From assembly GCA_963809895.1 (NCBI GenBank), contig CAWELD010000003.1, positions 640,001 through 704,000 of the forward strand: a stretch of 64,000 bases of DNA. Direction: 5' to 3'. The DNA comes from an uncultured Gemmatimonadales bacterium. Lineage in GTDB: Bacteria > Gemmatimonadota > Gemmatimonadetes > Longimicrobiales > Gaopeijiaceae. Positions 18,428 to 62,003 of the stretch are shown here, in pieces (the stretch's first letter is position 1; each line of letters opens with the position of its first letter). The notes below the pieces were generated by a model. That model was not told the origin of the DNA, made no database searches, and saw nothing but the letters and a program-made list of their open reading frames with translations. The position numbers were made by a program, and so were the translations under genes.

Positions 18428-18456
18428 AAGATAACAGCGCGTGGCGAGGGGATCAA
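18428..18456 (-). promoter_or_regulatory. Putative sigma70 promoter of rpsT
   Basis: Minus strand TTGATC, 17 nt, TATCTT. Confidence 0.55.
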
Positions 18457-20060: not shown

Positions 20061-21205
20061 GTGTAGCGTTTCTAAAGTTGTTAGCCCACGTTCAGATCTT
20101 CGCGAGAATCTCCTGAGCGGACTTTGTCCAGATGAAGGGTTTCGGGTCTTCGTTGCGATGGTCGAGATAGGCCTCGATGTGGCCGATGAGTTCCGGGACG
20201 CTATTGACGGCGAGGCGCTTGAGCTGGCGTTCGTCGAGCTCCCCGAACAGACGCTCGACGATATTGGCCCACGAGGCGCCCGTGGGTACGAAATGAAACT
20301 GGACCCGGGGATTGCGTTCCAGCCACCTGCGGACCTTCTCGTGCTTGTGCGTGGCGTAGTTGTCGAGGATCACGTGAATCTCCAGATCGGGATCGACGCT
20401 CTTCTCGACCTTCTTCATGAACGTCAGGAACTCCTGATGCCGGTGCCGAGGCATACACTCGTGAAGGACGTGGCCCGTGGCGACGTCGAGGGCGGCGAAC
20501 AGAGTCGTCGTGCCGTGCCGTTTGTAGTCGTGCGTCATCGTTCCCGCACGACCCTTCTTGAGTGGCAGACCGGGCTGGGTACGGTCGAGGGCCTGGATCT
20601 GGCTCTTCTCGTCGAAGCTGAAGACGACGGCGTTGTCAGGAGGATTCAGGTAGACGCCCACCACGTCATGCAGCTTCTCGACCAAACGAGGATCGCGCGA
20701 GAGCTTGAAGCGCCGGATCTGGTGGGGCTTGAGCCCGTACTTCCTCCACACCCTCCAGATGGTCACGTGGTCGAGCCCCATGGCCTCGCCCAGGAGCCGA
20801 CTGCTCCAGTGGGTCGAAACCTCAGGCGGCGGATCCTCCTCGACCGTCTTCCTGACGATCTCCTCCTCGAGCCTACGCGTGACTTTCGGGGGCCGTCCCG
20901 ACCGGGCTCGGTCGCCCTCGATCCCCTTGAGCCCTTCGGCCTCGTAGCGTCGCATCCACAGACGGGCGGTATCTCGGGCGATGCCCAGTGTGGCTCCGAT
21001 GGCGCGACTCGATTCTCCTCGGGAGGCGGCCAGAACGATCTTCGCTCGTTCGACCTGGCGCCTCGGCAACGTGCGGGATCGTGCCCAGGATTCGAGCGTC
21101 CTCCGGTCCCCGCGGCGCAGTCGCAACTTCCTGGTTGCAGTAGCCATGAACACCAATATAGCGCTCCCGGGCATCATGGGATAGATACTTTTGTAACAGT
21201 ACAGC
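20061..21205 (-). mobile_element. IS630-family insertion sequence
   Basis: TA duplication in CTAG context (20059-60 and 21206-07); imperfect IRs GTGTAGCGTTTCTAAAGT and GCTGTACTGTTACAAAAGT (rc). Confidence 0.9.
20092..21177 (-). CDS. IS630 transposase
   Basis: SFDEKSQIQAL, HDYKRHGTTTLFAALDV, ILDNYATHK, SWANIVE. Confidence 0.93.
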   Translation of the reverse strand: MMPGSAILVFMATATRKLRLRRGDRRTLESWARSRTLPRRQVERAKIVLAASRGESSRAIGATLGIARDTARLWMRRYEAEGLKGIEGDRARSGRPPKVTRRLEEEIVRKTVEEDPPPEVSTHWSSRLLGEAMGLDHVTIWRVWRKYGLKPHQIRRFKLSRDPRLVEKLHDVVGVYLNPPDNAVVFSFDEKSQIQALDRTQPGLPLKKGRAGTMTHDYKRHGTTTLFAALDVATGHVLHECMPRHRHQEFLTFMKKVEKSVDPDLEIHVILDNYATHKHEKVRRWLERNPRVQFHFVPTGASWANIVERLFGELDERQLKRLAVNSVPELIGHIEAYLDHRNEDPKPFIWTKSAQEILAKI

Positions 21206-21337
21206 TAGACACCGCGTCTACGCCTATCGTCAGAACGGAGAGCGGGGAGAGGTGCTGACCTATCGATGGAGGTGGGAGCTGAAGACGTAGGACGTGCTCG
21301 TGAAGCATAGTCAGATTCGACCTGCAAGGAGAAGCTC

Positions 21338-21733
21338 ATGAAGACCGTTGCGAAGACCCTGATGGTGGCGTTGGGCTTGGCCCTCGCCTACGTAGCAACT
21401 CCGGAGGCCGCTTCGGCGCAGTGCATTACGCCACAGCACTGCCACAATATCCCGAACGAGTCGGAGCAACAGTGCTTCGACGGCTTGACGTCGTTCTCCT
21501 TCGAAATATGCTACATTGCTGGGGGCATGTGCCAGATGTCTGGAAGGTGTGGCATGGCCTATCTGGACCTGGAAGGCGACGTGAACCTGACGCCCGCAGG
21601 CACGCTGGCCAGCCCGTCGGTCGCGAACGTCCTGGCCGCGTTCTCCGGCGAAGAACTGAAGAACTGTCGTGACTTCGTGATTCTGGTGGCGAAGCGCGAG
21701 ACAGCCGCTCCATCCCAGCTAGTATTAGACTAG
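21338..21733 (+). CDS. Secreted cysteine-rich small protein, possible precursor
   Basis: RBS AAGGAG; signal peptide ending AASA|Q; six Cys in the first ~44 mature residues and a seventh in the tail. Confidence 0.75.
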   Translation: MKTVAKTLMVALGLALAYVATPEAASAQCITPQHCHNIPNESEQQCFDGLTSFSFEICYIAGGMCQMSGRCGMAYLDLEGDVNLTPAGTLASPSVANVLAAFSGEELKNCRDFVILVAKRETAAPSQLVLD

Positions 21734-21806
21734 CGCGGACCCGGTTACCATCTCTCCCCCTCTCCGACGATCGATCATCCGTTCAACCGGCCCCGAGAGA
21801 CGATCC

Positions 21807-22934
21807 ATGTTCGCCGCTAGGTCTGCCACTACTCTTCTTGTCATGCTTGCGTTCACGTCTCCATACCCCGCCCAGGCCCAGCACCTCTCGCTTGAGCGGA
21901 TCTGGTCCGTCGGGTCGGCCTTCGGTTCAGAGTCAGAGACCTGGGTTCGCCTGGAGGACGCGACGGTGGTAGACGGCTATGTCGTTGCCGTGGATCCCTT
22001 CTTGCCAACCGTTAGGGTCTTTACGGTTCGGGGTGAGTACGTAGGCGAACTGGGTCGAACCGGGGCTGGCCCTGGAGAATACAGTGCTCCTGTTTCGGTT
22101 CACGCGGACGATGGTGGATTTCAGGTGCACGACCTTCAGCAGAGCCGTTCCGTTTGGTGGCGAATCACCGCCGATGGGATCGAGCACGACCAGACCACGC
22201 TGGAATACGAGCAACCGAACGCCCGGTGGCTTCGACCGGCGCGAGGTGGCGGGAGCGTCGTGTGGACCGTTCTGGTGGTGCGAAACAATCAACCCGAGGA
22301 CCACGTCGTGATGTTCGCGAACGGGTCGCGTGCCGACACCCTTGGGCATGTTGATCCAAACCCGATCCGGTACGTCCTGAGAGACATGGAGTCAGCCGGT
22401 GTAAGAACGAGCGGCAGGGCGAGCGCCTTCACGGCCGGCGGCGCCTGGCTATTGGGCGACTCACTGCTTGTTATCGTCGACGGGTGGACGAATCGTGCCA
22501 ACCTGTATCGGATGGACGCCGGTGGGCCGTCGCTCTCGAAGACTGTGACACCCCCGGCCGTGACAGCAGTCGCTCGCTCCAGGTCCGGCGACCAGGAGAA
22601 GCTCAAGCGCTGGTGGCTGCACCGAGGCGGAAATGAGAGCCTGGACGACACGGGGGTGCGCCGAGTCTTCATGCCCGACAGCGTCCCCATCTGGTCCAAA
22701 GTCGTCGGCGACGAAGAGGGCAACATCTGGCTCCGCGACGGCTCCGTTCAACGGCTACGAACTGAGAAAGGCGAGCACTGGCTGCGCTGGAACGTGGCGG
22801 ATGGCACGTTTACTTGGGTCGACGTGCCGTGGGGTGTCGAGGTCCTTCGCTTTCGCGACGGATACATGGTGGGTCGTGAAACGCTCGAATTCGGAACCTT
22901 GGGCCTCAGCCTGTTTCGTTTGATCGAGTCGTGA
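21807..22934 (+). CDS. 6-bladed beta-propeller exported protein
   Basis: Signal peptide ending AQA; LGRTGAGPGEY, GDEEGNIW. Confidence 0.75.
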   Translation: MFAARSATTLLVMLAFTSPYPAQAQHLSLERIWSVGSAFGSESETWVRLEDATVVDGYVVAVDPFLPTVRVFTVRGEYVGELGRTGAGPGEYSAPVSVHADDGGFQVHDLQQSRSVWWRITADGIEHDQTTLEYEQPNARWLRPARGGGSVVWTVLVVRNNQPEDHVVMFANGSRADTLGHVDPNPIRYVLRDMESAGVRTSGRASAFTAGGAWLLGDSLLVIVDGWTNRANLYRMDAGGPSLSKTVTPPAVTAVARSRSGDQEKLKRWWLHRGGNESLDDTGVRRVFMPDSVPIWSKVVGDEEGNIWLRDGSVQRLRTEKGEHWLRWNVADGTFTWVDVPWGVEVLRFRDGYMVGRETLEFGTLGLSLFRLIES

Positions 22935-23111
22935 AGTCGGAGGTCGGGGGGCACCTCTTGCGGCCCTTCAGCCGGCGCCACGGAACAGTGATTCTTGCGG
23001 CCGAGGTGCGATCCACGCAATCCTGCTCGCGGACCAGCCCCCCAGGACCGGTCCAAACCCTCGGTCGGGATGCGGGTGACTTCTCGGCACCCCGTTTCTG
23101 GTCCACTATAA

Positions 23112-24345
23112 CCCGGCTCATTCATGAGGGCAGGGACTGTTCGAGGATTTTGGCTTAAGGTTCCGGGAAGGGGGCGTGCGGTGGGAGTCTGAGCATCGCG
23201 AGGATAGAGACCCCCTTACCCCCATGGGGGTTGTGGAGGTGAGTGGATTCCCGGCCTGACTGGGGGACTACGCTGGAACAGGCAGGGCCGGGGCAGCGGG
23301 GGAACCGCGGGCGGGTGGCAGCGCCTGGAGGGCGGAGCGGAAGCGCTGCCAGAGGGGAGCACGAGCGGCGGCAATGACGACGGTGACATAGCCGCTGCCG
23401 AGGAGGACACGGGCGGCGGTCTTGAGGAGGAAGGTTCGGAACCGTTCGCGGCTCATGCGGACGTCGCGGTCGCGGCTGAGCAGATCGGCGCCGGCGGCGA
23501 GGATATTCGCGGCGAGAAGGCCCAGGAGGAGCTTTGCGTCGTTGGCGGCGAAGGTGTCGGGCTCGTCCTGCCGCGGCGTCCGGATCGGGCGTTCCCGGTA
23601 GTGGCTCTTGGGGCGTGGCGAGGAGGAGAGGGTGGGGCCGACGGTGCTCTTGAAGGCGCCGAAGTCGCCCTCGGCCGTGCCGCGACGGCGGTATCGAGCG
23701 AGGAGGTCGGACGCGCGCTCCTCGTGGGGCGAGGCGCTGGTGAGCAGAAAGAAGTGATCGAGGAAGAGATGCTGCTGTTCGTCGGGGCGCTCGAGCACGA
23801 CGAGGACGACGCGGCGCGCTCGGCTCCAAGTCCCGGCTTGGTAGGAGAGTTCGTGGAACCAGGTGCGGCCTCCGGCCGGAGGCCGCCCGGACGGGCGGCG
23901 CAGGAAGGGCTTGGCCATGCGCTCGAGCACGGAATTCGAGCGGAGGCGACAGACGTAGGGAATCCCCTCGTCCTCAAGGGTGTCGAGAAGGGTCGGGGCC
24001 GGGAATCCCGCATCGGCACGGAGCCAGACGCGGGGGACGAGGGTGCGGAGCCAGCGCAGGATCGGCAGCACAAAGTCGAGGCCGCCATCGGCCGTGTGCA
24101 CGTTGCCCTCCCGGAGCTGTCCGCCAAGGAAGTAGCGGCCTTCGACGCTGGCGACGAGAGGGTGGAAGCAGCGGATGCGGTAGTGGGCGTTGTAGGCCGT
24201 GCCGGGCTGATGGCCGTGGACCTCGTGGGGGAAGGAGTCCAGGTCCAGTGTGAACTCCCCGTCCGATCGGTTCAGGAGCGGCACGATGAGCTGACGGAGC
24301 AGGCACGCCAGACCCTCCCGGTTCGCCTCGCTGCCCAGGACGTAG
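23112..24345 (-). mobile_element. IS1380-family element, left end and transposase N-terminus deleted (transposase frame 23268-24345)
   Basis: LDLDS..HGHQ....NAHY, LRADAGF, YRRRG.AE, FAAN; IS1380-like end CCCGGCTCATTCAT at 23112. Confidence 0.8.
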
Positions 24346-25845
24346 CTCGCCAATACCCTGAGCGGCCACTACGGACAGGTGGTGTCAGCGCATCTGACCG
24401 CGGGTAGCACGGTGTTCATGGTCAACCACGTGCACCACCTGCCGCTTCGGTTCTTCGAGCGCATGCCCGTGGGCGACATCCTCTCACGCTTCGGAGACCT
24501 GCGCACGTCGCTGGCGTCCGTGCGGCGGCTCTTCGACCTGGTGTTCGTCCGGATGGTCTTCCTCGTGCTCATCCCCCCCATTCTCATCGCCATGAACTGG
24601 CGCCTGGCGCTGGTCGCGTTCGCGGCGGTCCCCCTCACCTGGGCCGCGAATGTGGCCACGGGTCGTGCCCTGCGGCGGAGATGGCGGCGGGTGGCGGAAT
24701 CCGGGGCGGAGCTGCGGGCCTTGAACATCGAGACCCTGAGTCACATTCGCCTCCTGAAGGGGATGGGCCTGGAGGGGGCGTCGTACCGGCGAACGGCCGA
24801 GACGGCCGGGGCGGCCAGAGCGGAGGCGCTGGACGCGGCTCGACTGAGTGTTGGGCTGGGCCTGCTGAACGGACTGGTTCGTACGGCCGGCTCCCTCCTG
24901 CTGACGTACGTGGGGTGGCGAATGATCCTCGCCGGGGGCCTTACCCTGGGCACCTTCATCGCGTTCATGGCCTACCTGGGGCGGGTACAGGGCCCCCTGT
25001 CGCAGATTTCATCGCGTTTCAGCGAGTTCCAACGGACGGCCATCACATTGGACCGCCTCTTCGAGCTGTTGGACGAGCCGACGGAAGCCGATCCCACGGT
25101 ACACTACGATGCGGCCTTCCGCCCCGCGCCGGTGCCCTTTGACGGGGCCATACGCGTCGAGAGGCTGCGGTTCGTCTACGAGCGGGGCGAGTTCTCCGTG
25201 GAGATACCCGAGCTGGATCTGCCGGCGGGCTCGGTCACGGGCCTGGTGGGGGCGAGCGGGTCCGGCAAGTCCACCTTGCTCCGCCTGCTGGCCGGGTTGG
25301 AGCGACCCACCGACGGGAGCATCCACTATGGCGCACACGCCCACTACGCGCTCCCACTTGCGTCGATACGCCGGAGTGTGGCGGTTGCGTGGCACACCCC
25401 GGACCTCCTCCGCGGCTCCCTTGGCAGCAACATCTTCTACGGCCTCGAGAGCGTGGACGACGCGCGGTTGGCGGAGGTGCTCGCGGTCTGTCGACTGGAA
25501 TCGTTGGTAGCGTCGCTCCCCGAAGGCCTGGACACGCCCGTGGCCGAGTGGGGCTCCACGCTCTCCGCCGGCCAGCAGCAGCGCCTGTCCCTGGCGCGGG
25601 CTCTCGTGCGGGACGCGCCAGTGGTCCTTCTGGACGAGGTGACGTCGAATCTTGATCCCGAAACCGAGGCCGAGCTCATGCCCGGTCTCATCCGACTGCT
25701 GAGAGGCCGGACGGTCGTGCTTGCCAGCCACCGAGCCTCGACCGTGGCTTTCGCCGACCGGACCTGCCGCATGGTGGGCGGCCGAGTGGTGGGAGTGACG
25801 GGCGAGGAGACGGCGCGGCGAACCCATGTGGCGGCCGCTGGCTGA
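24346..25845 (+). pseudogene. PCAT/bacteriocin-exporter-like ABC transporter, N-terminally truncated
   Basis: HLPLRFFERMPVGDILSRF TMD motif; GASGSGKST, LSAGQQQR, LLDE, SHR; starts mid-TMD at the IS1380 junction. Confidence 0.8.
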
Positions 25846-47415: not shown

Positions 47416-49065
47416 ATGGCACGGGCACGGTCATGGATCCTGATACTGCTCCTGTCCGGCGTCACCACACCCGGACTCCGAGCGCAGGCGCCGGACGACC
47501 CGGTCTCCGAGGCCATCCGCCTCCGCCTCGAGCAGCTGAGGGAGCAGGGCGAGATGGCGCTCGCCGGGGTGGCGCTGGATGCGCGCTCGGGACTCGCGGA
47601 GCTCTACGAGCTGCGAGGGTTTCGGCCGCTCTGGACCAGCGCCGACCGGAGCGAGGCCCTGCGCCGGTTCGTGCATGGCGTGGAGGCCGACGGGCTCCGG
47701 CCCGCCGACTACCACGCCGGGGTCCTGGACGCGGCGGCACGGATCGGGGGATCCCTCGATGCCGAAGACGCAGCCGAGTTGGATCTTCTTCGCACCGATG
47801 CCTTCATCCGCGTCGCTCACGACCTTCACGGCGGACGCGTGGATCCCTCGGTCCTGGATCCCACCTGGCACGTGGACCGCGCTGGCGGCGCACTCTCTCC
47901 CGAGGCGCTGGACAGCCTGGCGTCCCAACCTTCGGTGTTGCGAGCGCTGGACTCGTTGCGTCCGCAACATCCCATCTATCGCGGGATGATGCAGGCGCTC
48001 GAACGGTACCGGCGACTTGCGTCCGACGGTGGCTGGCCGCGGCTCCCCGATTCGCTCTTCCTGGGGCCGGACTCGGTGGGACCCGAGGTGGAGGTGCTGC
48101 GACGGCGGCTGGTAGTGGAGGGGTTCCTGCCCCCGGGATCCCGAGGATCCCAGACGTACGATGCGCGCCTCGAGGATGCGGTGAAGGCCTTCCAGCACCT
48201 TCGGGGCCTCAACGAAGACGGCGTCGTCGGGCCCAGTACCGTCAGCGCGCTGAACGTGCCCGCGGCGGCGCGGGTCGAGGCGTTGCGCGTGAATCTCGAG
48301 CGGGCTCGCTGGGTGCTGCGCGAGCTTGAGGATACGGCGGTGGTGGTGAACATCGCCGGCCAGAAGGTCTACGTTCTGGAGGGAGACTCGGTGGCCCTGG
48401 AGATGCGGGCCGTGGTGGGCAAGGGGTACACGCGCACGCCCGTCTTCTCGGCCGCCATGCGCTATCTGGTCCTGAATCCCACCTGGACCGTGCCCAGGAG
48501 CATCAATGGTGAGATCCTCTCGCACATCCGTCGGGACCCCGGCTACCTCGCTTCTCAGGGATTCCAGATCCTGGACGCGGCGGGAGAGGAGGTGGATCCC
48601 GACTCGGTGGACTTCGGACGGTACAGCGGCGCCAGCTTTCCCTTCGTATTCCGCCAACGCCCCGGGCCCACCAACGCCCTCGGGCGAATCAAGTTCATGT
48701 TCCCCAACACCTACAACGTCTATCTGCACGACACGCCCGAGCGGAGCCTCTTCCAACGTGAGGAGCGGACCTTCAGCCACGGCTGCATTCGCGTGCAGGA
48801 TCCCATGGCGTTGGCGGCGGTGCTGCTGGGCCCCGAGAGCATGGCCCGGGCCCGTGAGGCGCTGGCGGGCCGGGAGACGCTGACGTTGGACCTGCCGGTA
48901 CCCCGGCTCGTGCTCGTGCTCTACTGGACGGCAGCCGTGGACCTCGACGGGGACGTGCACTTCTACCGCGACGTCTACGGACGCGACGGCGCCCTCCTGG
49001 AGGCGCTGGACGCTCCCGAGCCTCAGTCGTCGTCGACGTCGGGGAGCACGCCGGCTTCGCGGTAG
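47416..49065 (+). CDS. L,D-transpeptidase, YcbB/LdtD-like
   Basis: PG-binding AVKAFQ..GL..DGVVG; YLHDTP, SHGCIR, DVYGRD. Confidence 0.9.
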   Translation: MARARSWILILLLSGVTTPGLRAQAPDDPVSEAIRLRLEQLREQGEMALAGVALDARSGLAELYELRGFRPLWTSADRSEALRRFVHGVEADGLRPADYHAGVLDAAARIGGSLDAEDAAELDLLRTDAFIRVAHDLHGGRVDPSVLDPTWHVDRAGGALSPEALDSLASQPSVLRALDSLRPQHPIYRGMMQALERYRRLASDGGWPRLPDSLFLGPDSVGPEVEVLRRRLVVEGFLPPGSRGSQTYDARLEDAVKAFQHLRGLNEDGVVGPSTVSALNVPAAARVEALRVNLERARWVLRELEDTAVVVNIAGQKVYVLEGDSVALEMRAVVGKGYTRTPVFSAAMRYLVLNPTWTVPRSINGEILSHIRRDPGYLASQGFQILDAAGEEVDPDSVDFGRYSGASFPFVFRQRPGPTNALGRIKFMFPNTYNVYLHDTPERSLFQREERTFSHGCIRVQDPMALAAVLLGPESMARAREALAGRETLTLDLPVPRLVLVLYWTAAVDLDGDVHFYRDVYGRDGALLEALDAPEPQSSSTSGSTPASR

Positions 49066-50462
49066 GTCATCAGCTTGCGGTACAGCGTGCGGCGACTGAT
49101 GCCCAGCGTCCGGGCCGCCAGGCCCTTCTGCCAACGGCAGCGCTCCAATACCTGGAGGATGTACTCCTGCTCCAGGTGGGCCAGATCCCAACCCTCCTCG
49201 TGGGCCTTCTCGGTGAGTCCCGTTTCGGCACTGTCCAGCGCCGTTCGGGGCTCGAAGCGCAGGGGCTCCCCGTCTCCGGCCATGATCACCGCACGCTCCA
49301 TGGTGTTCTCCAGCTCGCGCACGTTTCCGGGCCACGAGTAGGCCATCATGCGGGAGAGCGTCTCGTGCGGCAGCTCAGGCGGATCCAGACCGTGCTCTTC
49401 GGCGAAGCGAAGACGGAAGTAGTTGGCCAACAAGGGAATGTCTGTCGGCCGTTCACGTAGAGGTGGAACTTCCACCGGGAACACGTCCAGACGGTAATAG
49501 AGGTCCTCCCGGAAGCGCCCCTCCCGGACCAGCGCCGCCAGGTCGGTGTTGGTGGCCGCGATGAGCCGGAAATCCACGGCCACCGGCGTGCGGGAGCCGA
49601 TGCGCTGAACACGCCGTTCCTGGAGCACCCGCAGGAGCTTGACCTGGATGTCCTCGGAGAGGGTGCTCACCTCGTCCAGGAAGAGGGTGCCGCCTGCCGC
49701 CTCCTCGATGAGGCCCGGCCGGCTCTGCACGGCGCCGGTGAAAGACCCCTTCATGTGCCCGAAGAGCTCCGACTCCAGCAGGGTGTCGGGAAGCGCCGAG
49801 CAGTTGACCGCCACGAAGGGGCGGCGGGACCGGTCCGAGAGGTCGTGGATGGCGTGCGCCACGAGCTCCTTCCCGGTGCCGGTCTCCCCGACGACGAGCA
49901 CCGTGGCACGCGTGGGGGCGACGCGCTCGATGGTGCGGAAGAGCCTGCGCATGGCCGGGGACCGCCCCACCAGGTCGCGTAGGCGATCCGAGGTCGCCAG
50001 GCGGCGGAGCTCGGCCACTTCGCGTCGCAGGGCCGCGTCTTCCGCGGCTCGCGACACCAACAGGAGGAGCTCGTCTTCCTTGAAGGGCTTCCGGATGTAG
50101 TCCCACGCGCCGAGCTTCATGGCCTCCACCGCGGATTCCACCGTGCCGAAGGCCGTCATCACGATGAAGCGGGCGTCGGTGCGCACGGACGGAAGCGCCG
50201 CGAGCACGTTCAGTCCGCTGAGGCGGGGAAGCTGGAGATCGAGGAGGACCACGTCGAAGGACTCCTGGTCCAGAGCCTTCAATGCTTCCTCTCCGTCGTC
50301 CACAGCCGTGACGCGGTAGTGGACCTCCTCGAGGACGTCGCTGACAAGCGACCGGATGGTGGCGTCGTCCTCGACCACCAGGACGCGGCCCGCGGACGGT
50401 GCCGTGCGGGGGTCGTCGGGTGCGGCGAAGTCGGACCTCGGCTGGTGATCGCGGACTCGCAC
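49023..50462 (-). CDS. Sigma54-dependent response regulator (NtrC family); start approximate
   Basis: REC (VVEDD, LLDL), GETGTGKE, ELFGHMKGSFTGA, WPGNVREL, Fis HTH. Confidence 0.93.
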   Translation of the reverse strand: MRVRDHQPRSDFAAPDDPRTAPSAGRVLVVEDDATIRSLVSDVLEEVHYRVTAVDDGEEALKALDQESFDVVLLDLQLPRLSGLNVLAALPSVRTDARFIVMTAFGTVESAVEAMKLGAWDYIRKPFKEDELLLLVSRAAEDAALRREVAELRRLATSDRLRDLVGRSPAMRRLFRTIERVAPTRATVLVVGETGTGKELVAHAIHDLSDRSRRPFVAVNCSALPDTLLESELFGHMKGSFTGAVQSRPGLIEEAAGGTLFLDEVSTLSEDIQVKLLRVLQERRVQRIGSRTPVAVDFRLIAATNTDLAALVREGRFREDLYYRLDVFPVEVPPLRERPTDIPLLANYFRLRFAEEHGLDPPELPHETLSRMMAYSWPGNVRELENTMERAVIMAGDGEPLRFEPRTALDSAETGLTEKAHEEGWDLAHLEQEYILQVLERCRWQKGLAARTLGISRRTLYRKLMTYREAGVLPDVDDD

Positions 50463-50687
50463 GGGCTCTGCCGGAGTGCGCACCCTGCCTCCTGCGTTGG
50501 GTGGACGTCTGGACACCTGAGACAATCTGTCCCCGTTGCGCGCCCGGAGACTGTCGGGTGGGGGAGGGTGGCCGGTGTGGGGAAGCTCCCCACAGCCGAT
50601 GCCGGGGCCGGGACGACAGACGCGCTGCCCGAGTCGGCCATACTCTCCTTGTGGAGCTTCTGCGCAGATCCACGGGCGGAGACACCC

Positions 50688-52910
50688 ATGAACGGGTCCG
50701 GCACCGATCGGCGCCCCTGGCGGCGTGCCGATCCGAAACGGCGCATGGCGGCGGCGGGCCTGGTCCGCACCGTGGCCGAGGTCGCCAACGCCGCCACCTC
50801 TCTGGAGGACGGTCTCGCCGGCGTCCTCCCGATCCTCTGCAGGCACCTGGGCTGGCCGGTCGGCCACGCGTTTCTCGTCGAGGGCGACACCCTCCGCTCC
50901 ACGGATCTCTGGTACCTGGAAGGCGATCCCGCGCGCTTCGAGCGATTCCGCGAGCGCACCGGTGCCACGCCGGGGTGCCCCGACGCCTGCCTGGTCGCGG
51001 GAGTCGTCCACAGTGGCCGCGCCTCGTGGATCCCCGACGCGCGCACCGAACCGGGCCTCCTTCGCGCCGGATCGGACGCTGTCATCCGTAGCGGGCTACT
51101 TTTGCCCGTCCGGTGTGACGGTGAGATACCGGCGGTGCTGGAGCTGTGGGCCGACGAGGTGGTGGAGCGTGAGGCGGAGATCCTGGAAGTCATGGAGGCC
51201 GTGGGGACCCAGCTCGGCGTGGTGGCACTCCGTGAGCGGTCCCGGGCGTTCCTGGAGGCGTCGGAGGCCCGTCTGGGAGAGATCCTGGACATTTCCGCGG
51301 ATGCGGTGCTCGCCCTGGACTCCGAGGGTCGGATCGCACTGTTCAACGCGGGCGCTGAAGCCACCTTCGGATACTCCCGGGAGGAGGTCCTGGGGGAGCC
51401 TGTGGAGCGCCTGGTGCCCGATGGGCTGCGAGACACCCGTGCGGAGGGAGTGCGGGCCGTCGTCTCGGCCGACCAGGACTCCGGATCCGTCGTGGGCGGG
51501 CCGGGGCTGGACCTCCGGGGCCGCCACCGCGACGGGCACACCTTCCCGGTCAAGGCCCGGATCGCGCGGGTCACGGGCCCGCCTGATCCACTGTACGCCG
51601 TGGTCCTGCGCGACGTCACCGAAGAGCGTCGGGTCGCGGCGATCCAGCGAGCGCTGGCTGAGGCGGGTGAGGTCTTCGCGTCGTCGTTGGACGCGGTCGA
51701 GACGGTAAGGGGCGTCGCTCGAGTGGCGGTGGGGCATCTTGCCGAGTGCTGCGGAATCTACCTGTTCGACGAGACGGGCGGCGTCGAGCGGGTGGAGTTC
51801 GCCTGCGCCGAGGGAGGCGCCGGCGATTGCCACCTCGCCCGAGGGTGGCGGGCGTCCGAGGCGACGTCGCGCCTCGTGTCGGGCAGTGCGGGGGGCGCTC
51901 CCGTGCTCCTGACCCGTGACGAGACGCGGAATCTGCTCGGGAGTGACTCGGGAGCAGTGGGTACGGTCCTTCTGGTGCCCGTGATCGCGCATGAACGCCC
52001 GCTGGGCAGCATGGTCTTGATCCGGCGGGCGGGTCGGGAGTCCTTCGGGGACGGTGAGGTGGAGTTGGCCACGGAGCTGGCCCGTCGGACCGCCATCGCC
52101 CTGGAGGCGGCCGAGCTCTTCCAGACCACCCGGCGGGCGGTGCACACCCGCGACGAGATCCTGGGGATGGTGTGCCACGACCTGGGGACGCCGGTGAGTG
52201 CAGTCGCCATGGTGGTGGACCGGCTGCTGCGTCAGGCGCCCGAGGACGACCGGCGCGTACGCACACGGAGCTATCTGGAGGGGCTTCGCACCTCGGTGAG
52301 CCAGATGGAGCGGCTGATCCGCGACCTGCTGGACGTCCGCCAGATCGAAGCGGGGCGCTTCGTGGTCGAGCCCATCGCGCAGCCTCTGAACCCGATTCTG
52401 TGGGCTGCGGTGTCGGGGATGGAGGCGCGGGCGGGCCAGGACGCGGTCGAGGTGCTCAGCCCGGACGATGGGCTGCGCGTGCGGGCGGACCGGGACCGGC
52501 TGATTCAGCTCCTCTGGAACCTGCTCAGCAACGCACGGCGCGTGTCGCCCCCCGACAGCCCCGTGCGCGTGGAGGCCATCGAGGCTGGCGACGAGGTGGT
52601 GATCACGGTTCTGGACAGGGGCCCGGGCATTCCTCCCGACCAGGTCCCGTACCTCTTCGACCGCTTCGCCCAGGCGCGCAGGGTTCGGCGCGTGGGTGCC
52701 GGGCTGGGGCTCACCATCGCCCGCGAGATCGCCGAGGCCCACGGCGGTCGGATGTGGGTGGACACCGAGGTGGGGGTGGGGAGCGCTTTCCGGTTCACCC
52801 TTCCTCGGGTGCGTCCCCAGGCGCTCGAACGGGTTCCGCGTCCCAAGGCGGTGGCTGGACGAAACGACCCATCACGGGTCAGGCGCCGGGGACGGAACGA
52901 CCCTCGGTAG
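50688..52910 (+). CDS. GAF-PAS-GAF sensor histidine kinase
   Basis: HDLGTP H-box, NLLSNA, DRGPGI, GLGL; PAS FNAGAEATFGY. Confidence 0.9.
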   Translation: MNGSGTDRRPWRRADPKRRMAAAGLVRTVAEVANAATSLEDGLAGVLPILCRHLGWPVGHAFLVEGDTLRSTDLWYLEGDPARFERFRERTGATPGCPDACLVAGVVHSGRASWIPDARTEPGLLRAGSDAVIRSGLLLPVRCDGEIPAVLELWADEVVEREAEILEVMEAVGTQLGVVALRERSRAFLEASEARLGEILDISADAVLALDSEGRIALFNAGAEATFGYSREEVLGEPVERLVPDGLRDTRAEGVRAVVSADQDSGSVVGGPGLDLRGRHRDGHTFPVKARIARVTGPPDPLYAVVLRDVTEERRVAAIQRALAEAGEVFASSLDAVETVRGVARVAVGHLAECCGIYLFDETGGVERVEFACAEGGAGDCHLARGWRASEATSRLVSGSAGGAPVLLTRDETRNLLGSDSGAVGTVLLVPVIAHERPLGSMVLIRRAGRESFGDGEVELATELARRTAIALEAAELFQTTRRAVHTRDEILGMVCHDLGTPVSAVAMVVDRLLRQAPEDDRRVRTRSYLEGLRTSVSQMERLIRDLLDVRQIEAGRFVVEPIAQPLNPILWAAVSGMEARAGQDAVEVLSPDDGLRVRADRDRLIQLLWNLLSNARRVSPPDSPVRVEAIEAGDEVVITVLDRGPGIPPDQVPYLFDRFAQARRVRRVGAGLGLTIAREIAEAHGGRMWVDTEVGVGSAFRFTLPRVRPQALERVPRPKAVAGRNDPSRVRRRGRNDPR
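52857..52903 (+). repeat. Direct repeat GGACG(A/G)AACGACCC x2, 33 bp period; candidate enhancer (UAS)
   Basis: Copies at 52857-52870 and 52890-52903, about 85-130 bp upstream of a -24/-12 element. Confidence 0.55.
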
Positions 52911-52986
52911 CCGGGAGGGCCCTTCATGGAGACGACGAACGGCCTGGCGACACGGCGTTCCGCGTCGGTCGGACCCGCCGGAGTTC

Positions 52987-53001
52987 TGGCACGATCGGTG
53001 C
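52987..53001 (+). promoter_or_regulatory. Sigma54 -24/-12 promoter
   Basis: TGGCACGATCGGTGC, GG-N10-GC spacing, close to consensus TGGCACG-N4-TTGC. Confidence 0.7.
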
Positions 53002-53012
53002 ACTCAATACGC

Positions 53013-53272
53013 GCACAGGCTCGCCGACCCGGTGAGGTCGCCCTGGTCGACGACGAGGTCCTCGGGAGTCTGACTCCGAGACCCGGTTGCGAGCGCGCCG
53101 GTCGCAACGCCGCCTTCTCGGAAGAGGAGGCCACCTGACCTCGTTGGAGGAAGGGCAAGACAGACCGATCAGGCCGCCGCACGCGACGGTGTCAGACCGA
53201 GCGGATCGGTAGATCGCCGGCGGTTGGAAGCCCTCGGGGGATGCGTGAACGAACCCGGGGGCTTCCTTCGTT
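53013..53272 (+). ncRNA. Candidate structured ncRNA of unknown family
   Basis: Sigma54 promoter upstream, nested helices forming a four-way junction, terminator-like hairpin at the 3' end. Confidence 0.5.
53226..53272 (+). terminator. Putative intrinsic terminator
   Basis: GGAAGCCCTCGGG/CCCGGGGGCTTCC 13-bp stem followed by TTCGTT (weak U-tract). Confidence 0.55.
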
Positions 53273-53451
53273 GTGGTCAGGGCGGGCGACGCACTCCCGT
53301 GGCGGGGCGCTTGCCCCCAGTGAGTGGTCCGCGTCAGTTGAGGAACATCGCTCGCCGCGCGCGGGCCAATCCCTCCTCGCTTCGCGTTGTCGTGGCTACG
53401 ATTCCTCCCACCTCCTCCGCTTCGGCACCGGGGCCACCCCCGGCGCACCGC

Positions 53452-54681
53452 ATGCCGCGACTCCCCAGGACCGTATGGGCTCTCGGCGTGGTGAGCCTGC
53501 TGACCGATCTGGCCAGCGACATGGCGTATCCGGTCCTGCCGGCCTTTCTGGTCGGGACGTTGGGAGCCACGGCCGTGGCCGTGGGGCTGATCGAGGGTGT
53601 GGCCGAGGCCACGGCCTCGCTCTTCAAGCTCGTCTCGGGCCGGCTGTCGGACCGGGTGGATCGGCGCAAGCCACTCGTGGTGACGGGCTACGGCCTGTCG
53701 GGGCTGGTGAAGCCGCTTCTGGCCCTGGTCACGGGCCCGTGGCAGGTGCTGGCCGTGCGCTTCGCGGATCGCACGGGGAAGGGGATTCGCTCGGCGCCGC
53801 GAGATGCGCTGCTGGCGGCGCACGCCCGTGGCGTGGGCCCCGGACGCGTATTCGGGCTGCACCGCAGCATGGATACCGCAGGGGCCATTGTCGGGCCTCT
53901 GGTGGCCACGGTCGTGCTGGCCCTGGCCCCGGGCCGCTTCCGGCTCCTGTTCGCCCTGACGCTGGTGCCGGGTCTGCTGGCCTTGGCGGTGCTGGTGGCC
54001 TTTGTCCGGGAAAGGCCCTATCGGCCACCGAGGGAGCCCGCCACCACGGCTGCGGTGGAATCGGACCGGCAGGAGCCGCGCCCGGCGGATCGCAGCCGTG
54101 TGCGCGACGTGCTCCGGCGGGAGCTGGTGGTCATCCTGATCATCACCGTGGTGTTCTCGGCCGGGAACTCCAGTGACGCCTTCCTTCTCCTGAGGGCCCA
54201 GGATCTGGGGGCCCCTGCCGGCCGACTCCCGCTGCTGTGGATGGTGCTCAACGTCGTGTATGCCTCCACGGCGTGGTGGGCGGGCCTGTGGAGTGACCGC
54301 ATCGGACGTCGTGCGGTCCTGGCGCTGGGCTTCGCGGTGTACGCGGGCACGTACCTTCTGCTGGCGAGTGGCACGGCGACCTCGGGACTCTGGGGCGTCT
54401 TCGCCCTCTATGGGCTCTACTTCGGCCTCACCGACGGTGTGCTGCGCGCGGCCGTCGCCTCGGCGGCGCCCCGAGCGCTGCGGGGGACGGCCTTCGGGAT
54501 CTACCACGCCCTCACCGGTGTCACGCTGCTCGGCGCCAGCCTGCTCGCCGGCTTCCTGTGGGAGCGAGTCGGGCCGCATGCGCCCTTCGTGGTGGGCGCG
54601 GCGACGGCCGGGGTGAGCGCGGTGCTGTGTCTCGTCCTGCTGCGGCCCCCCCGCTCGGAAGCCGAGGCCGTCGGCGCCTGA
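53452..54681 (+). CDS. MFS transporter
   Basis: SLLTDLASDM, SGRLSDRVDRRKP, DRTGKGIRSAPRDA, WSDRIGRR. Confidence 0.92.
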   Translation: MPRLPRTVWALGVVSLLTDLASDMAYPVLPAFLVGTLGATAVAVGLIEGVAEATASLFKLVSGRLSDRVDRRKPLVVTGYGLSGLVKPLLALVTGPWQVLAVRFADRTGKGIRSAPRDALLAAHARGVGPGRVFGLHRSMDTAGAIVGPLVATVVLALAPGRFRLLFALTLVPGLLALAVLVAFVRERPYRPPREPATTAAVESDRQEPRPADRSRVRDVLRRELVVILIITVVFSAGNSSDAFLLLRAQDLGAPAGRLPLLWMVLNVVYASTAWWAGLWSDRIGRRAVLALGFAVYAGTYLLLASGTATSGLWGVFALYGLYFGLTDGVLRAAVASAAPRALRGTAFGIYHALTGVTLLGASLLAGFLWERVGPHAPFVVGAATAGVSAVLCLVLLRPPRSEAEAVGA

Positions 54682-57817: not shown

Positions 57818-58270
57818 CTACTTCTTGACGATGTCGATCTTGCGGCCCATGGCCTCCTTCTTCTTCGGAAGGTGGACCGTCAGGACGCCGTCGGCGAACT
57901 CCGCCTTGATCTTCTCCACGTCCACGGCCCTCGGCAGGGCAAAGCTGCGCTCGAAGGAGCCGTTGCTCCTCTCGAGGAGGTGCCAACGGCCCTCCTGCTC
58001 CTCGCGCTCGGTCTTCTTCTCACCCTTGAGCACGAGCATGTCCTTGTCGACGTCGATCTGCACGTCGTTGGCCGTCATGCCGGGCAGCTCCGAGGTGAGG
58101 AGGTACTCCCCCTCGACTTCCTTGAGGTCGGTGGCCGGGAGCCAGGCCACGGTCTCGGCTGCGTTGAAGGTGGGGAGCGAGAGCCCGAAGACCCGGTTCA
58201 CCCGGTCCTGAAGGCTCTCGAGCTCCTGCCACGGGTTCCGGGTGCGGGTCCACGGTGTCAGCGCGTTCAT
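57818..58270 (-). CDS. Hsp20/alpha-crystallin small heat shock protein
   Basis: ELPG, ERSNGSFERSFALP, AEFADGVLTVHLPK. Confidence 0.95.
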   Translation of the reverse strand: MNALTPWTRTRNPWQELESLQDRVNRVFGLSLPTFNAAETVAWLPATDLKEVEGEYLLTSELPGMTANDVQIDVDKDMLVLKGEKKTEREEQEGRWHLLERSNGSFERSFALPRAVDVEKIKAEFADGVLTVHLPKKKEAMGRKIDIVKK

Positions 58271-58341
58271 GATTCACTCCTGGTTCGGTCGGGTGCCGTC
58301 CGTCCTCGTGGACGGAGGCCGCATCAGCACCTGCAGGGAGC

Positions 58342-58356
58342 GCATCGAGCGTGCCA
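58342..58356 (-). promoter_or_regulatory. Sigma54 -24/-12 promoter upstream of hsp20
   Basis: Minus strand TGGCACGCTCGATGC, GG-N10-GC, about 70 nt before the ATG. Confidence 0.6.
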
Positions 58357-58493
58357 CGCGGCGGGGCCGGTGCGTAGCGCCGGCGTCGGGGCTCCTGTGG
58401 CGGAAGGGCTCGCCCTGGGACATCCTGGCACCGGGCTGCGCCGGGCTCTTTCGTACGCCTCGAACCGAGGACCGGGGCGCCGGATGCGTCGGG

Positions 58494-59915
58494 TCAGAGC
58501 AGAGGGGCCACGAGCCGCGTGAGGCGTTCCAGTAGTCGCTCCAGCCACGGGCGAGAGCCGTGGAGGGCCAGGGATTGCTCCACGGCACGGGTGAGATCGG
58601 CGTGGAAGAGTGAGTCCATGGTGGCACCCACCCCGGGGTCGTCCACCAGCAGCGCCGACTCGTCGTTGAGACGCAGGGAACGGTTGTCCAGGTTGAGGCT
58701 CCCGATGCTCACCCACCGCCCGTCGGCGACCACGGTCTTGGCGTGTATCATGGTGGGCTGGTATTCGAAGATGCGCACGCCGCCCGCCAGCAGCTCGTCG
58801 TAATAGGCCCGCCCGGCCCAGCGGGTGCTGGGCACGTCCGTACGGGCGCCGGGCACGAGAATGCGCACGTCCACGCCGCGATCGGCGGCCTCCAGGAGGA
58901 GGCGGCGCATGGTGGGCGTCGGCACGAAGTAGGAGTTCGTCAGGTACAGCGTGCGCCGTGCCGACGCCAGCGTGAGCGTGAGATAGCGGTCCGCGGGTCG
59001 GGTGCCGACGCCGGGACCCGACACCAGATACCCAGCGCGGACGGCGCCGTCGGCGGGCGGTGGGTCCTTCGGTACCCCCTCGAGCGTGGGCGCCGCGCCA
59101 AAGAGCAGCGTGTCGGCCCGGAGCTCTCCCGTCGCCTCGGCCCAGGCGGCCGTGAAGACTCCTTGCACGACGGCCACCACCGGCCCCTGCACGCGTGCGC
59201 TGGTGTCGCGCCAGGGCAGCTCCCCCGGCGCGTCGCCCAACCAGCGATCGTCGAAGCCGAATCCTCCCGTATACGCGACCGTCCCGTCCACGACCACGCT
59301 GCGGGCGTGATGCCGATGCTGGACGCGGTGGAGGGTGGACCAGCGCACGGGCCGCAGGGTCGCCACCCTGGCTCCCGCTCGCGTCAGGTCATCGGAGATG
59401 GCGTCCAGCATGGTCCGGCACCCGAATCCGTCACCCAGCAGCATCACTTCGATGCCGGCTCGGGCCCGTGCGGAGAGGACCGCACTCAGTGAGTCCGCCA
59501 GAGCGCCGGGGCCGCAGTAGTAGGCCAGGACCGTGATGGAGCGCCGCGCCGCACGCAGATCCTCGAGCATGCTCCGGAAGGTGTGGGCGTCGGTCAGGAC
59601 CTCGACGTGGTTCCCTTCCACGAGCGGAGTCTCCGCGACGCCCCCGGCGAGGGCCGCGAACCCCGAATCGCCGGGTGCCGGGAGCCCTGGGGTAACGACG
59701 CTTCGCACAGGCGATCCCCGGGTGATGTCGGAGACCCGATGCACCGCCTCGCCGGCCGCCACCACCGCGACCAGCGCGAGAAACGCCAGCGCCAGACGAC
59801 GTCGGACCGGGATCGGCGGCGGCACCGACGGGGTATCGCAGTCGACGGTCGCGTCTGCGGGCGCGGCCGAAGGGTCCGTGCCCGGACCTGTCGGATGGGA
59901 GTCCAGAGAAGACAT
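58494..59915 (-). CDS. Cardiolipin synthase-like phospholipase D protein
   Basis: HARSVVVDG (variant) and HAKTVVADG HKD motifs; WRDT, SYFVP, GSLNLDNRS. Confidence 0.88.
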   Translation of the reverse strand: MSSLDSHPTGPGTDPSAAPADATVDCDTPSVPPPIPVRRRLALAFLALVAVVAAGEAVHRVSDITRGSPVRSVVTPGLPAPGDSGFAALAGGVAETPLVEGNHVEVLTDAHTFRSMLEDLRAARRSITVLAYYCGPGALADSLSAVLSARARAGIEVMLLGDGFGCRTMLDAISDDLTRAGARVATLRPVRWSTLHRVQHRHHARSVVVDGTVAYTGGFGFDDRWLGDAPGELPWRDTSARVQGPVVAVVQGVFTAAWAEATGELRADTLLFGAAPTLEGVPKDPPPADGAVRAGYLVSGPGVGTRPADRYLTLTLASARRTLYLTNSYFVPTPTMRRLLLEAADRGVDVRILVPGARTDVPSTRWAGRAYYDELLAGGVRIFEYQPTMIHAKTVVADGRWVSIGSLNLDNRSLRLNDESALLVDDPGVGATMDSLFHADLTRAVEQSLALHGSRPWLERLLERLTRLVAPLL

Positions 59916-61008
59916 GGTCAGGATTCAATCACGTGTGCGTCCCCTCGTTCTCGGCACCGTGTTGGCGGCCTTGAGCGTCGTCAGCGGTTGCGCGTCGACG
60001 GGACTGCGCGCGCGCCCGCAGCGAATGGAGGTCCCGCCTCGCGCCGGCACCGGTGGCCTCACCTGGGTCAGCGCCGCCCCCGAAGGAGACAGCGCCGACC
60101 TCACTTCGTGGCGTGGGGCCGTAGGTCCGGCCGTCCGGCTCTCGCCCGGGGGGCTGACGGTTGCACCGCCCGCGGACCAGCTCGCTGTGGTGAGCTGGAA
60201 CGTCCACGTGGGCGGAGGGGACCTGATCCGCCTGGTCACCGACCTGCGCAGCGGTGAGCTCACCGGTGGTACTCCGGTCCACGACTTCGTGCTCCTTCTC
60301 CAGGAGGCCTACCGGGCAGGAGAACAGCCCCTCGGCCCGCTCTCGGGGTCGCAGGCCCCGCGGCGCATCGACGCGGCGCCGCCCCGGGGTCCCCGGCTGG
60401 ACGTCGTGGAGGTCGCCCGGACGCTGGGTCTCGAGCTTCTCTACGTACCGTCCATGGGCAACGGTGACGGGTCGTCGGGCGCCGAGGACCGGGGCAACGC
60501 CATCCTGTCGACGCGGCGGCTCTCGAACGTCACCGCCATCGTGCTTCCGTTCGAAGGCCAGCGGCGCGTGGCCGTTTCGGGCCACGTCGCCGGGCGTACG
60601 TCGTCGGGCTCGCCGTGGCGACTCCGGGTGGTGAGCGCCCATCTGGACAGCCGCACGCGCTGGAGTCGCATCCTGGACAGCTTCGGGTCGGCCCGGGCTC
60701 GTCAGGCCCGTGCACTTCTGGATGCGCTCCCGACCGATCCAACGGTTCTGGGCGCGGACCTCAATACGTGGGGCCCTCGCTTCACGGAGAACGCCCCCGA
60801 GGTGCTCGGTCGGCGATTCCAGGGAGTCCAGCGAGGTCCCGGCGGCACCTTCACGCTGGCCGGCGTCGTGCAGAGGCGTTTGGACTACCTGGTCTTCGAC
60901 CGGGCGGTGACCGCCTCCACTGGAATGGACGGCGCGGCGGTGGTCCGCGTGGAAGACCGTTACGGCTCCGACCACCATCCCCTGGTGACGATCCTCGACC
61001 TGGGCTGA
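59914..61008 (+). CDS. Endonuclease/exonuclease/phosphatase-family lipoprotein; start uncertain
   Basis: Lipobox VVSGC; SWNV, LQE, GNAILS, HLD, GADLN, LDY, SDHHP. Confidence 0.85.
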   Translation: MVRIQSRVRPLVLGTVLAALSVVSGCASTGLRARPQRMEVPPRAGTGGLTWVSAAPEGDSADLTSWRGAVGPAVRLSPGGLTVAPPADQLAVVSWNVHVGGGDLIRLVTDLRSGELTGGTPVHDFVLLLQEAYRAGEQPLGPLSGSQAPRRIDAAPPRGPRLDVVEVARTLGLELLYVPSMGNGDGSSGAEDRGNAILSTRRLSNVTAIVLPFEGQRRVAVSGHVAGRTSSGSPWRLRVVSAHLDSRTRWSRILDSFGSARARQARALLDALPTDPTVLGADLNTWGPRFTENAPEVLGRRFQGVQRGPGGTFTLAGVVQRRLDYLVFDRAVTASTGMDGAAVVRVEDRYGSDHHPLVTILDLG

Positions 61009-61017
61009 CCGGCCCGA

Positions 61018-61317
61018 TCAGTCCTCCGCCAGCTCCACTTCGATGGAGCAGTTGGTCACGAGGGCGGCGATGGCTCCCAGGGCTGCCCACACGGGCGCCA
61101 CGACGGCGCCGACCACGCCCACCGTGAGGGGCGCCTCGATGAGGGTGTTGCCGTCGTCGTTCTTCACGATGATCCGGCGCACGTTCCCCTGGTGGACCAG
61201 CTCCTTCACCTTGGCCAGCAGCGTGTCACCACGGACCCGATGCTCCTCGCGGGTCAACGTGGCGTGCTCTCCGGCTGATCTTCCGATCTCCGGGTCCGGG
61301 GTCGCATAGGTCTCCAT
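61018..61317 (-). CDS. DUF4342 domain protein
   Basis: KVKELVHQGNVRRIIVK..IEAPLTVG..AALVTNCSIEVE. Confidence 0.85.
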   Translation of the reverse strand: METYATPDPEIGRSAGEHATLTREEHRVRGDTLLAKVKELVHQGNVRRIIVKNDDGNTLIEAPLTVGVVGAVVAPVWAALGAIAALVTNCSIEVELAED

Positions 61318-62003
61318 GGTTCCTTCCTCGAGGGTGACGTGGAGAGGGTCGTGGACAGATAGCGCGAAAACCAGGCGGCGGCATGGTTCGCCACGGCGTC
61401 CAGGGCGCCCGGTTCCTCGAACAGGTGTGTGGCGCCCGGGACCACCACGACTTCGGTGGGCGCCTTCATCAGCGCCCTGGCCTGTCTGTTGAGCTCGAGC
61501 ACGGTGAGGTCGTGTCCGCCCACGATCAGGAGGGTGGGTGCGAGGACCGCCGGCAGCGCCGCGGCCGCCAGATCGGGGCGCCCGCCCCGGGACACGACGG
61601 CGTCCACGAGGTGGGGGCACCGGGCCGCGGCCACCAGCGCCGCCGCGGCGCCCGTGCTGGCGCCGAAGAGGCCGATCGGCAGCGCCTCGGTCACGTGCCG
61701 CCCCGCCGCCCACTCCAGGAGGTGCACGACACGGTCCGAGAGCAGGGCGATATCGAACCGGATGTGAGCGCTGGTCTCGTCCACGGCCTCCTCGGCCGGC
61801 GTGAGCAGGTCCGCCAGCAGGGTCCCCAGGCCGTAGGCCCGCAACTCCGCTGCCACGTGACGATTCCTGGTGCTGAAACGGCTGCTGCCGCTCCCGTGGG
61901 CGAAGACCACCAGTCCCCGAGGGTCTCGGGGAATGATGAGGTCGCCTCGCAGGAAGACGTCGCCGGCCGGGATGTGGGCTTCCATCTCCTCGTACGGGTA
62001 CAT
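61254..62003 (-). CDS. Dienelactone-hydrolase-like alpha/beta hydrolase
   Basis: FAHGSGSSR, FGASTGAAAAL, VSRGGRPDL, PGATHLFEE. Confidence 0.88.
   Translation of the reverse strand: MYPYEEMEAHIPAGDVFLRGDLIIPRDPRGLVVFAHGSGSSRFSTRNRHVAAELRAYGLGTLLADLLTPAEEAVDETSAHIRFDIALLSDRVVHLLEWAAGRHVTEALPIGLFGASTGAAAALVAAARCPHLVDAVVSRGGRPDLAAAALPAVLAPTLLIVGGHDLTVLELNRQARALMKAPTEVVVVPGATHLFEEPGALDAVANHAAAWFSRYLSTTLSTSPSRKEPWRPMRPRTRRSEDQPESTPR

Follow-up and report, generated by a model that had tools for sequence, protein, structure and literature searches.

The 64,000-nucleotide stretch of DNA analysed here (the window; positions 640,001 to 704,000 of contig CAWELD010000003.1, assembly GCA_963809895.1, from an uncultured Gemmatimonadales bacterium) carries at 53013..53270, on the forward strand, a noncoding RNA gene of approximately 258 nucleotides (nt), which we regard as practically certain to be functional, and which is one copy of a structured RNA family of Gemmatimonadota that is absent from Rfam. 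A sigma54 -24/-12 promoter (52987..53002, +) precedes the RNA. Upstream lies a gene for a GAF-PAS-GAF histidine kinase (50688..52910, +; Pfam), divergent from the gene for an NtrC-type sigma54 activator (49023..50420, -; start codon uncertain), in which Pfam matches indicate a receiver, an AAA+ domain with GSFTGA and a Fis-type helix-turn-helix. The gene on the other side encodes a major facilitator superfamily (MFS) transporter (53452..54681, +; Pfam), an incidental neighbour that tblastn did not find in 10 other loci where the RNA has a sigma54 promoter. From the letters of this stretch, the original prediction had proposed that a sigma54 promoter drives a discrete noncoding RNA here, produced as the output of the adjacent kinase and regulator.

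The proposal of a discrete noncoding RNA is upheld by conservation within the family, by covariation and by RNA contigs confined to the gene. The + strand of the region folds better than shuffled sequences (z -2.69, 1 of 200), whereas the - strand does not (z -0.46). Coding signal is not conserved in the open reading frame (ORF) that overlaps the RNA (52926-53138, 70 codons): its ATG is missing in five of five homologues compared, an early in-frame stop is present in two of the five, and a Pfam search returned zero matches. Rfam 15 at gathering threshold gave no match in the window, a search of the region at E up to 10 gave three chance matches, all below 18 bits, and the RNA in 20 + 20 homologue loci likewise remained without a match (E up to 1). 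Twelve RNA sequencing runs contain part of a 901-base query, and three of them from three studies (X7, X8 and X21) were compared along with one DNA run. Metatranscriptome runs X8 and X21 each yielded a single contig (53024-53236 and 53051-53219, respectively), while in X7 contigs within the RNA gene had depths of 14,704-25,000 vs 9-21 immediately 3' of the last hairpin and 2-4 on fragments of the genes for the kinase and the MFS transporter. None of the three RNA runs covered the interval 52609-53012, which is crossed by the contig of the DNA run (52765-53159). This pattern hints at a discrete RNA of very high abundance.

BLAST recovered three homologues (in genomes G004, G009 and G265), each of which retains the promoter, the RNA and the last hairpin; two weaker matches (L030 and L031) proved to be coding DNA. 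A 4-sequence model found matches in 28 of 151 genomes of the bacterial family, including a second copy in this genome, and a 29-sequence core model (R2) extended these to 90 of the 151 genomes and 60 of the 81 genera, as well as to 21 of 40 relatives and 22 of 151 genomes sampled across the phylum (f1 9/16, f3 1/1, f5 10/31, f4 1/74, other families 0). Five weak model matches (L098, L124, L150, L151, L307) were discarded as spurious. R2 matched 0/101, 0/121 and 0/81 genomes in samples built around Myxococcota, Acidobacteriota and Calditrichota, and 0/5 in a further sample, under strict filters and with no positive control within the sample. Distant homologues may be missed. A 31-letter exact pattern retrieved no stretch from metagenome contigs, and a shorter pattern retrieved 26 genome loci, of which nhmmer supported only two as real, both in Gemmatimonadota. 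The highest number of copies per genome is five (G050), at unrelated sites. Such multiplicity, combined with frequent loss, could be expected of a selfish mobile DNA or RNA cassette without host function, a reading to which we give very little credence: paralogues within a genome share only the part from promoter to last hairpin, with no target-site repeats and no adjacent mobilising enzyme, the site between lipB and rnhA is fixed in two families, plasmid and phage collections contained no match to the RNA, and the 66 pattern matches in viral contigs reached 20 bits at best, none of them real.

The fold derived from the aligned copies is a series of hairpins held together by three long-range pairings. 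Covariation defines P2 (53021-53), P3 (53057-83), P4 (53086-108), P5 (53112-31), P6 (53134-54) and P7 (53159-215), the last enclosing P8 (53173-90), all on the + strand, and these are followed by P9 (53226..53266, +), a terminator-like last hairpin of 13 bp with a weak U-run in this copy, which is a structural part of the fold. PK1 (53068..53197) joins the P3 loop at 53068-74 with 53191-97, PK2 (53096..53222) joins the P4 loop at 53096-101 with 53217-22, and PK3 (53180..53247) is a kissing contact between the P8 loop (53180-84) and the loop of the last hairpin (53243-47), each on the + strand and supported by covariation. When the 81 named pairs were scored on 29 MAFFT-aligned copies (2315 cells), 82.5% of cells were paired, compared with 69.8% after shuffling and 36-47% in slid controls, and 69 of the 81 pairs changed on both sides, in a test that favours the structure since it was derived from the same alignment. 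An independent test was made with 60 held-out copies aligned to a nested model containing no pseudoknot, in which PK1 and PK2 were 86.9% paired vs 29-44% when slid, with 44 double-change cells vs 15.2 in shuffles. Taken singly, PK1 had double changes in 6/6 pairs and 85% of cells paired among the 29 copies, and 5/6 pairs and 75.5% in the held-out set. PK2, the most conserved element of the RNA, was 95.6% paired in the 29 copies and 97.5% in the held-out set, there with double changes in 4/6 pairs; in this copy a compensatory C-G replaces the usual U-A. PK3 was 97.9% paired, with double changes in 4/5 pairs (29 copies), and its own scores were also compared with those of cross-pairs. Because PK3 uses the loop of the last hairpin, this "terminator" hairpin belongs to the tertiary fold; a terminator scan found no terminator at P9, but many homologues have a U-run after P9, and some have a further hairpin there.

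This fold differs from the nested one drawn in the original prediction. Its hairpins exist (53061-80, 53086-108, 53112-31, ACCGATC/GATCGGT and the 13-bp last stem), and the RNA is indeed conserved and covarying, but the helices that covary are those of the PK1-PK3 fold, and the four-way junction is not conserved. The helices proposed to close it, GCCCT/AGGGC, CGACGAGGTC/GACCTCGTTG and CCGGTGA/TCGCCGG, belong only to the minimum-energy fold of the single sequence, pairing in 50-53% of cells in 28 homologues vs 94-99% for P4, P8, PK2 and PK3, which is near chance, as slid controls give 36-47%. This comparison is limited by alignment noise, since P3 (44%) and P5 (58%) are also low in the register of this row, owing to alignment shifts. 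The outer helix CCGGTGA/TCGCCGG overlaps the PK2 strand at 53217-22. The GGA motifs were likewise given up as functional elements: 8 were seen where approximately 6.1 are expected, none is kept in more than 8 of the 28 homologues, and CsrA was not found in the genome, by which a CsrB/RsmY-type sponge was rejected. Beyond the core, the family includes a subfamily with an extended 3' end, in which the PK3 hairpin is followed by more sequence and another hairpin (L287, L288, L261, L286, L296, L300), and another in which the 5' domain is much longer, with 135-260 nt ahead of the core, and the P6b loop is of GGARA type (L291, L294, L301, L111, L117, L121, L135-L137, L143).

Sequence conservation is concentrated around PK2, and a fold with several pseudoknots and such a focus would suit a catalytic RNA, with the PK2/P4 core as the active site for some reaction. 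The accessible text of one report argues that most large bacterial noncoding RNAs of established function are ribozymes (Soares et al., PMC10861870). However, invariant bases are few, with 20 columns at >=90% and 2 at >=97% in a MAFFT realignment of 127 sequences (which may undercount, and from which five poorly aligned rows, L269, L282, L285, L299 and L303, were left out), vs 51 highly conserved bases described for raiA. Furthermore, no Rfam ribozyme matches, and the RNA has been lost in many genomes. Catalysis is therefore, in our assessment, an improbable function for this RNA.

The sigma54 box, with the GG (52988-89) and GC (53000-01) at the GG-N10-GC spacing originally recognized, has a predicted start at 53013 and is one of six strict matches to TGGCACG-N4-[TG]TGCW in the 5.3-Mb genome. 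It is kept at a fixed distance from the RNA in 12 copies, namely 11 of a set of 72 (A10) and one of 60 further copies (in G026), while most other copies show a sigma70-type pair (TTG-16/18-xAxxxT) whose distance from the RNA is nearly constant; contig ends truncate two of the 60 further copies. Judged by these motifs, most family members are under sigma70-type promoters, and the RNA here is a sigma54-promoter paralogue. Many sigma70 copies (families f1 and f3) are situated between lipB and a convergent rnhA, and others have unrelated neighbours. Near-fixed-distance promoters in most of the 60 further copies, together with varied and often convergent neighbours, argue that the RNA has a promoter of its own. 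A word of the form CAA-N4-TTR, which we take to be IHF-like, was seen 50-54 bases before the -35 of sigma70 copies (L245-L304) in 21 of 52 cases, vs a shuffle mean of 2.3 and a maximum of 6; as a general signal of stable RNAs it was rejected, with 0 of 29 upstream regions of the tRNA, tmRNA and rnpB genes of this genome carrying it.

If the RNA were a cis-acting leader, a riboswitch or attenuator, PK3 would adjust how the last hairpin terminates transcription ahead of the downstream gene. Such a leader would be compatible with the co-oriented gene found just 3' of several sigma54 copies (for an HhH protein, a phosphoenolpyruvate (PEP) synthase/dikinase, RtcB, CMD or MFS), with the weak U-run here and with the low cover of X7 past P9. 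On the other hand, the downstream genes have no common function, the lipB-rnhA copies are followed by a gene of opposite orientation, and raiA, too, was first proposed to be cis-acting and then, as its report describes, proved trans-acting (PMC11706538). We see little likelihood of a leader.

The second copy in this genome (G000:C3:1350764-1351079, -; locus L101) has a sigma70-type promoter, lies at the lipB-rnhA-carA site and is approximately 320 nt long, in keeping with the sigma70 form of the family (approximately 310-330 nt, four contacts); the sigma54 copy, by contrast, is shorter, lacks the fourth contact and resides among stress genes. The two copies have 80 of 158 core positions in common. 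The fourth contact tested is that of a 5' segment with the P6b loop, for which the scores of sigma70 copies were 5.0 for own pairs vs 4.6 for cross-pairs (n=60) and 4.5 vs 4.1 (n=56); the bulk excess being modest, the contact is based mainly on individual compensatory cases, which are present. For sigma54 copies it was rejected (own 3.9 vs cross 4.0; 11 copies tested). By this comparison the sigma54 copy is a trimmed paralogue, a natural deletion variant that marks a minimal core for structural studies. No other copy was found in G004 and G009.

The sigma54 form is accompanied by a candidate regulator. Each of the 12 genomes that carry a sigma54 copy has an orthologue of the activator, 58-69% identical (in G117 partial and with one stop), while full-length paralogues in this genome are at most 48% identical. 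Against a background of 50 of 151 family genomes, the activator was detected at E 1e-135 in 8 of 9 genomes with a sigma54 copy vs 24 of 81 other RNA-positive genomes of the same sample, counts in which kin are not independent. In G002, G004 and G009 the activator and the RNA are immediate divergent neighbours; in G162 they are 11 kb apart. We consider it probable that this activator drives the RNA, and the originally proposed link to an NtrC-type regulator is thereby borne out. In G009 (L003:2-1303, -) the phospho-acceptor aspartate of the activator's receiver is apparently replaced by glutamine (VVLLQL vs VVLLDL here), and there is no kinase between activator and RNA. The kinase adjoins the RNA only here and has no orthologue in 10 other sigma54 loci. 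Kinase-like genes adjoin four of six activator orthologues examined, in G265 a divergent pair of this kind, kinase and activator, lies on a contig other than that of the RNA (45% over residues 20-246), and the GAF-PAS-GAF kinase is possibly the cognate kinase of the activator.

Two candidate binding sites precede the promoter. A direct repeat with a 33-bp period had been noted at the end of the kinase gene; it comprises two 14-nt units, 13/14 identical, at 52857 and 52890, 33 bases apart, but is not a tandem repeat, since the full 33-mers share only 17/33 positions. Such a 14-nt pair occurred in 9 of 1000 random genome windows. Both units are imperfect GGGAC-N5-GTCCC palindromes and predicted activator sites, unit 1 (52856..52870, +) with two mismatches and its centre at approximately -151, and unit 2 (52889..52903, +) with one mismatch and its centre at approximately -118; from their sequence, they are likely bound by the activator. 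Among 11 sigma54 loci, 4 had a palindrome with at most one mismatch between -118 and -156 (shuffles: mean 0.38, maximum 3 of 300), as against 0 of 60 sigma70 loci, the motif having been chosen post hoc; the held-out sigma54 locus in G026 has one at -65. Two further palindromes lie between the divergent activator and kinase genes (50519-50533 and 50577-50593), one of which matches GGGAC-N5-GTCCC with one mismatch, and they may be autoregulatory sites.

A sigma54 promoter beside a sigma54-dependent response regulator, along with the existence of paralogues, recalls Pxr and Nla19 of Myxococcus (PMC5568312), and a base-pairing small RNA of this kind would be the dedicated output of the kinase and regulator. 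As described in the available portion of that report, Pxr is an RNA of about 108 nt with three simple stem-loops, and no pseudoknot is mentioned there, in contrast to the multi-knot RNA of approximately 258 nt here; most family members, moreover, have sigma70-type promoters. All conserved loops have covarying partners within the molecule, and thus there is no conserved free seed for pairing with mRNA. No match to a Pxr-type sequence of approximately 110 nt with three stem-loops was obtained here, and membership in that type was rejected, the family being found in 0/101 Myxococcota-centred genomes. A Pxr-like role is accordingly a distant prospect. The original view that the RNA exists as the output of its kinase and regulator (as Pxr or GlmY might) gives way to that of a paralogue within a larger, mostly sigma70 family, in which the kinase is not a conserved neighbour.

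Near most sigma54 copies there are genes for Hsp20, Usp, CBS, BON, PCMT, RtcB, LonB/DksA or PEP synthase/dikinase, and such a set is typical of dormancy and stress regulons. In the window, 57818-62003 holds genes for Hsp20, a cardiolipin-synthase-like PLD protein and two more proteins with homologues near the sigma54 copies of relatives, which suggests a rearranged stress island. On the 3' side of the sigma54 copy in G004, G009 and G265 a protein of 307-317 amino acids is encoded (L003:1682-2605, L002:503-1456 and L029:1788-2729), with the PolX N-terminal HHH_8 and HHH_5, no polymerase domain, an unannotated C-terminal part and no NCBIfam match. None of 14 metagenome loci anchored on this HhH/PolX-N-like protein contained the RNA, and this genome has nothing beyond a 31% match to it; hence it is not an obligate partner.

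Among known RNAs, raiA/ModT provides the best functional guess, by analogy: a stable, shape-based, trans-acting RNA, to whose family the present RNA does not belong. As described, raiA/ModT is an independently transcribed RNA of 200-300 nt with covariation-supported pseudoknots, is very abundant and linked to growth-phase transition, and acts in trans (PMC10861870, PMC11706538). The likeness lies in size, independent transcription and covarying pseudoknots. With regard to abundance and stability, which are high for raiA/ModT in these accounts, contig cover here is restricted to the gene and one run shows a large difference in depth, contigs not measuring level or half-life. Membership was rejected, with no model match (E up to 10 for this region and up to 1 for 40 homologue loci) and a different helix map. 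The raiA fold as reported has P1-P6, two pseudoknots and approximately 51 highly conserved bases, vs three or four contacts and 20 columns at >=90% here; it is located between raiA and comFC in Bacillota and Actinomycetota, whereas the present family occurs at lipB-rnhA, among stress genes and at varied other sites in Gemmatimonadota. Here, in addition, the last hairpin is part of the knot, sigma70 and sigma54 paralogues coexist, and the family alignment shows no covarying 5'-3' closing stem.

We propose that the activator, probably phosphorylated by a kinase, switches on a stand-alone knotted RNA that has a docked 3' end and, through its shape, acts on a protein partner, a reading to which we assign a probability of roughly 55%. 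The GAF-PAS-GAF kinase would phosphorylate the NtrC-type activator, which would work through the sites at -151/-118 and turn on sigma54 transcription of the RNA. Docking of the last-hairpin loop into P8 would then protect the 3' end and explain high stability, and the RNA, stable and abundant, would act in trans by its shape, serving as a scaffold or decoy for its partner under stress or in dormancy. That the partner is a protein and the output stress physiology is suggested by the analogy with raiA/ModT; action via shape, and not via pairing with mRNA, is likely. Unlike most ornate RNAs, the sigma54 copy comes with a candidate activator, candidate binding sites and a context of stress genes, and the inducing condition is therefore testable.

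Several observations weigh against this proposal. Three genomes assembled as a single contig (G015, G024 and G051) yielded no copy of the RNA, and in G004, G009 and G015 there is little or no space between lipB and rnhA, so that the RNA is dispensable. The activator is present in many genomes with no detected sigma54 copy, this genome has many other sigma54 activators, and the non-independence of kin bears on the co-occurrence. Seven of the 11 sigma54 loci yielded no palindrome with at most one mismatch, among them G004 and G009, where the activator is adjacent, and no stress genes are clearly evident next to the copy in G069. The sigma54 copies do not form one clade on a weak 176-column tree, on which the two copies of this genome separate. 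The depth contrast in X7 is a hint only, because contigs show neither start, strand nor level, and with low cover at 53280-53411 in that run some read-through past the RNA gene is possible.

6S RNA, a promoter mimic, forms a long rod with a central bubble, its usual site is the zapA-rny interval, and Ms1 RNA is similar in size to the RNA here. In this genome, the zapA-rny interval (G000:C3:803790-803950; L308) is too short for a 6S RNA, with a gap of only approximately 95 nt after a promoter-like site, and the Rfam 6S model finds no match in the genome, which is 95% complete. The RNA could accordingly be a substitute for 6S or Ms1 that binds RNA polymerase, with the sigma54 copy as its stress-induced form, and the Ms1-like size and apparent abundance (as far as described in PMC4191392 and PMC9130861) would agree with such a role. 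The fold, however, is a compact knot with no long hairpin and central bubble, no copy scanned matched the Rfam 6S or Ms1 models, for which reasons membership was rejected, and the distribution of the family is patchy. We hold this role to be as improbable as catalysis, the two being the main rivals to action by shape. A copy of a housekeeping RNA was also discarded, as RNase P RNA, tmRNA and a sub-threshold match to small signal recognition particle (SRP) RNA are at C3:2168746, C3:1254663 and C3:442986, none overlapping the RNA.

OLE, ROOL and GOLLD are 500-800 nt long, and thus larger than the RNA here, which is from other taxa and has no Rfam match. They share with it covarying kissing loops; theirs were first seen by covariation and, according to the accessible text of PMC12286853, some proved to be intermolecular bridges. 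A more elaborate version of our proposal, which we regard as doubtful, would hold that there are two interchangeable isoforms, one constitutive with four contacts and one trimmed to three contacts within a sigma54 dormancy regulon and among the most abundant RNAs of the cell, that the terminator hairpin is a docking module, and that some kissing contacts are intermolecular, as in ROOL/GOLLD, giving an RNA-only assembly.

Few large and highly structured RNAs are known from bacteria, and those with solved function do basic jobs; the present family occurs in approximately 60% of the sampled genomes of a bacterial family abundant in soil and sediment. Literature searches, which returned mostly listings and the beginnings of abstracts, yielded no published description of the RNA, and neither "Gemmatimonad" nor "Longimicrob" appears in the main text of 2026 genome-language-model preprints, whose supplements could hold the family as an unnamed cluster. 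While the broad category of abundant ornate RNAs is known, the fold and the family are not. New for the sigma54 form are the paralogue itself, the link to an activator, the missing fourth contact and the evidence of a transcript. Two minor observations concern other RNA genes of this genome. The only SRP RNA candidate (G000:C3:442986-443084; L102) scores 31.7 bits vs an Rfam cut-off of 40 and is a divergent small SRP RNA. In addition, 17 tRNA genes are clustered within approximately 2.1 kb at G000:C10:356346-358464, and a tRNA-Sec is also present in the genome.

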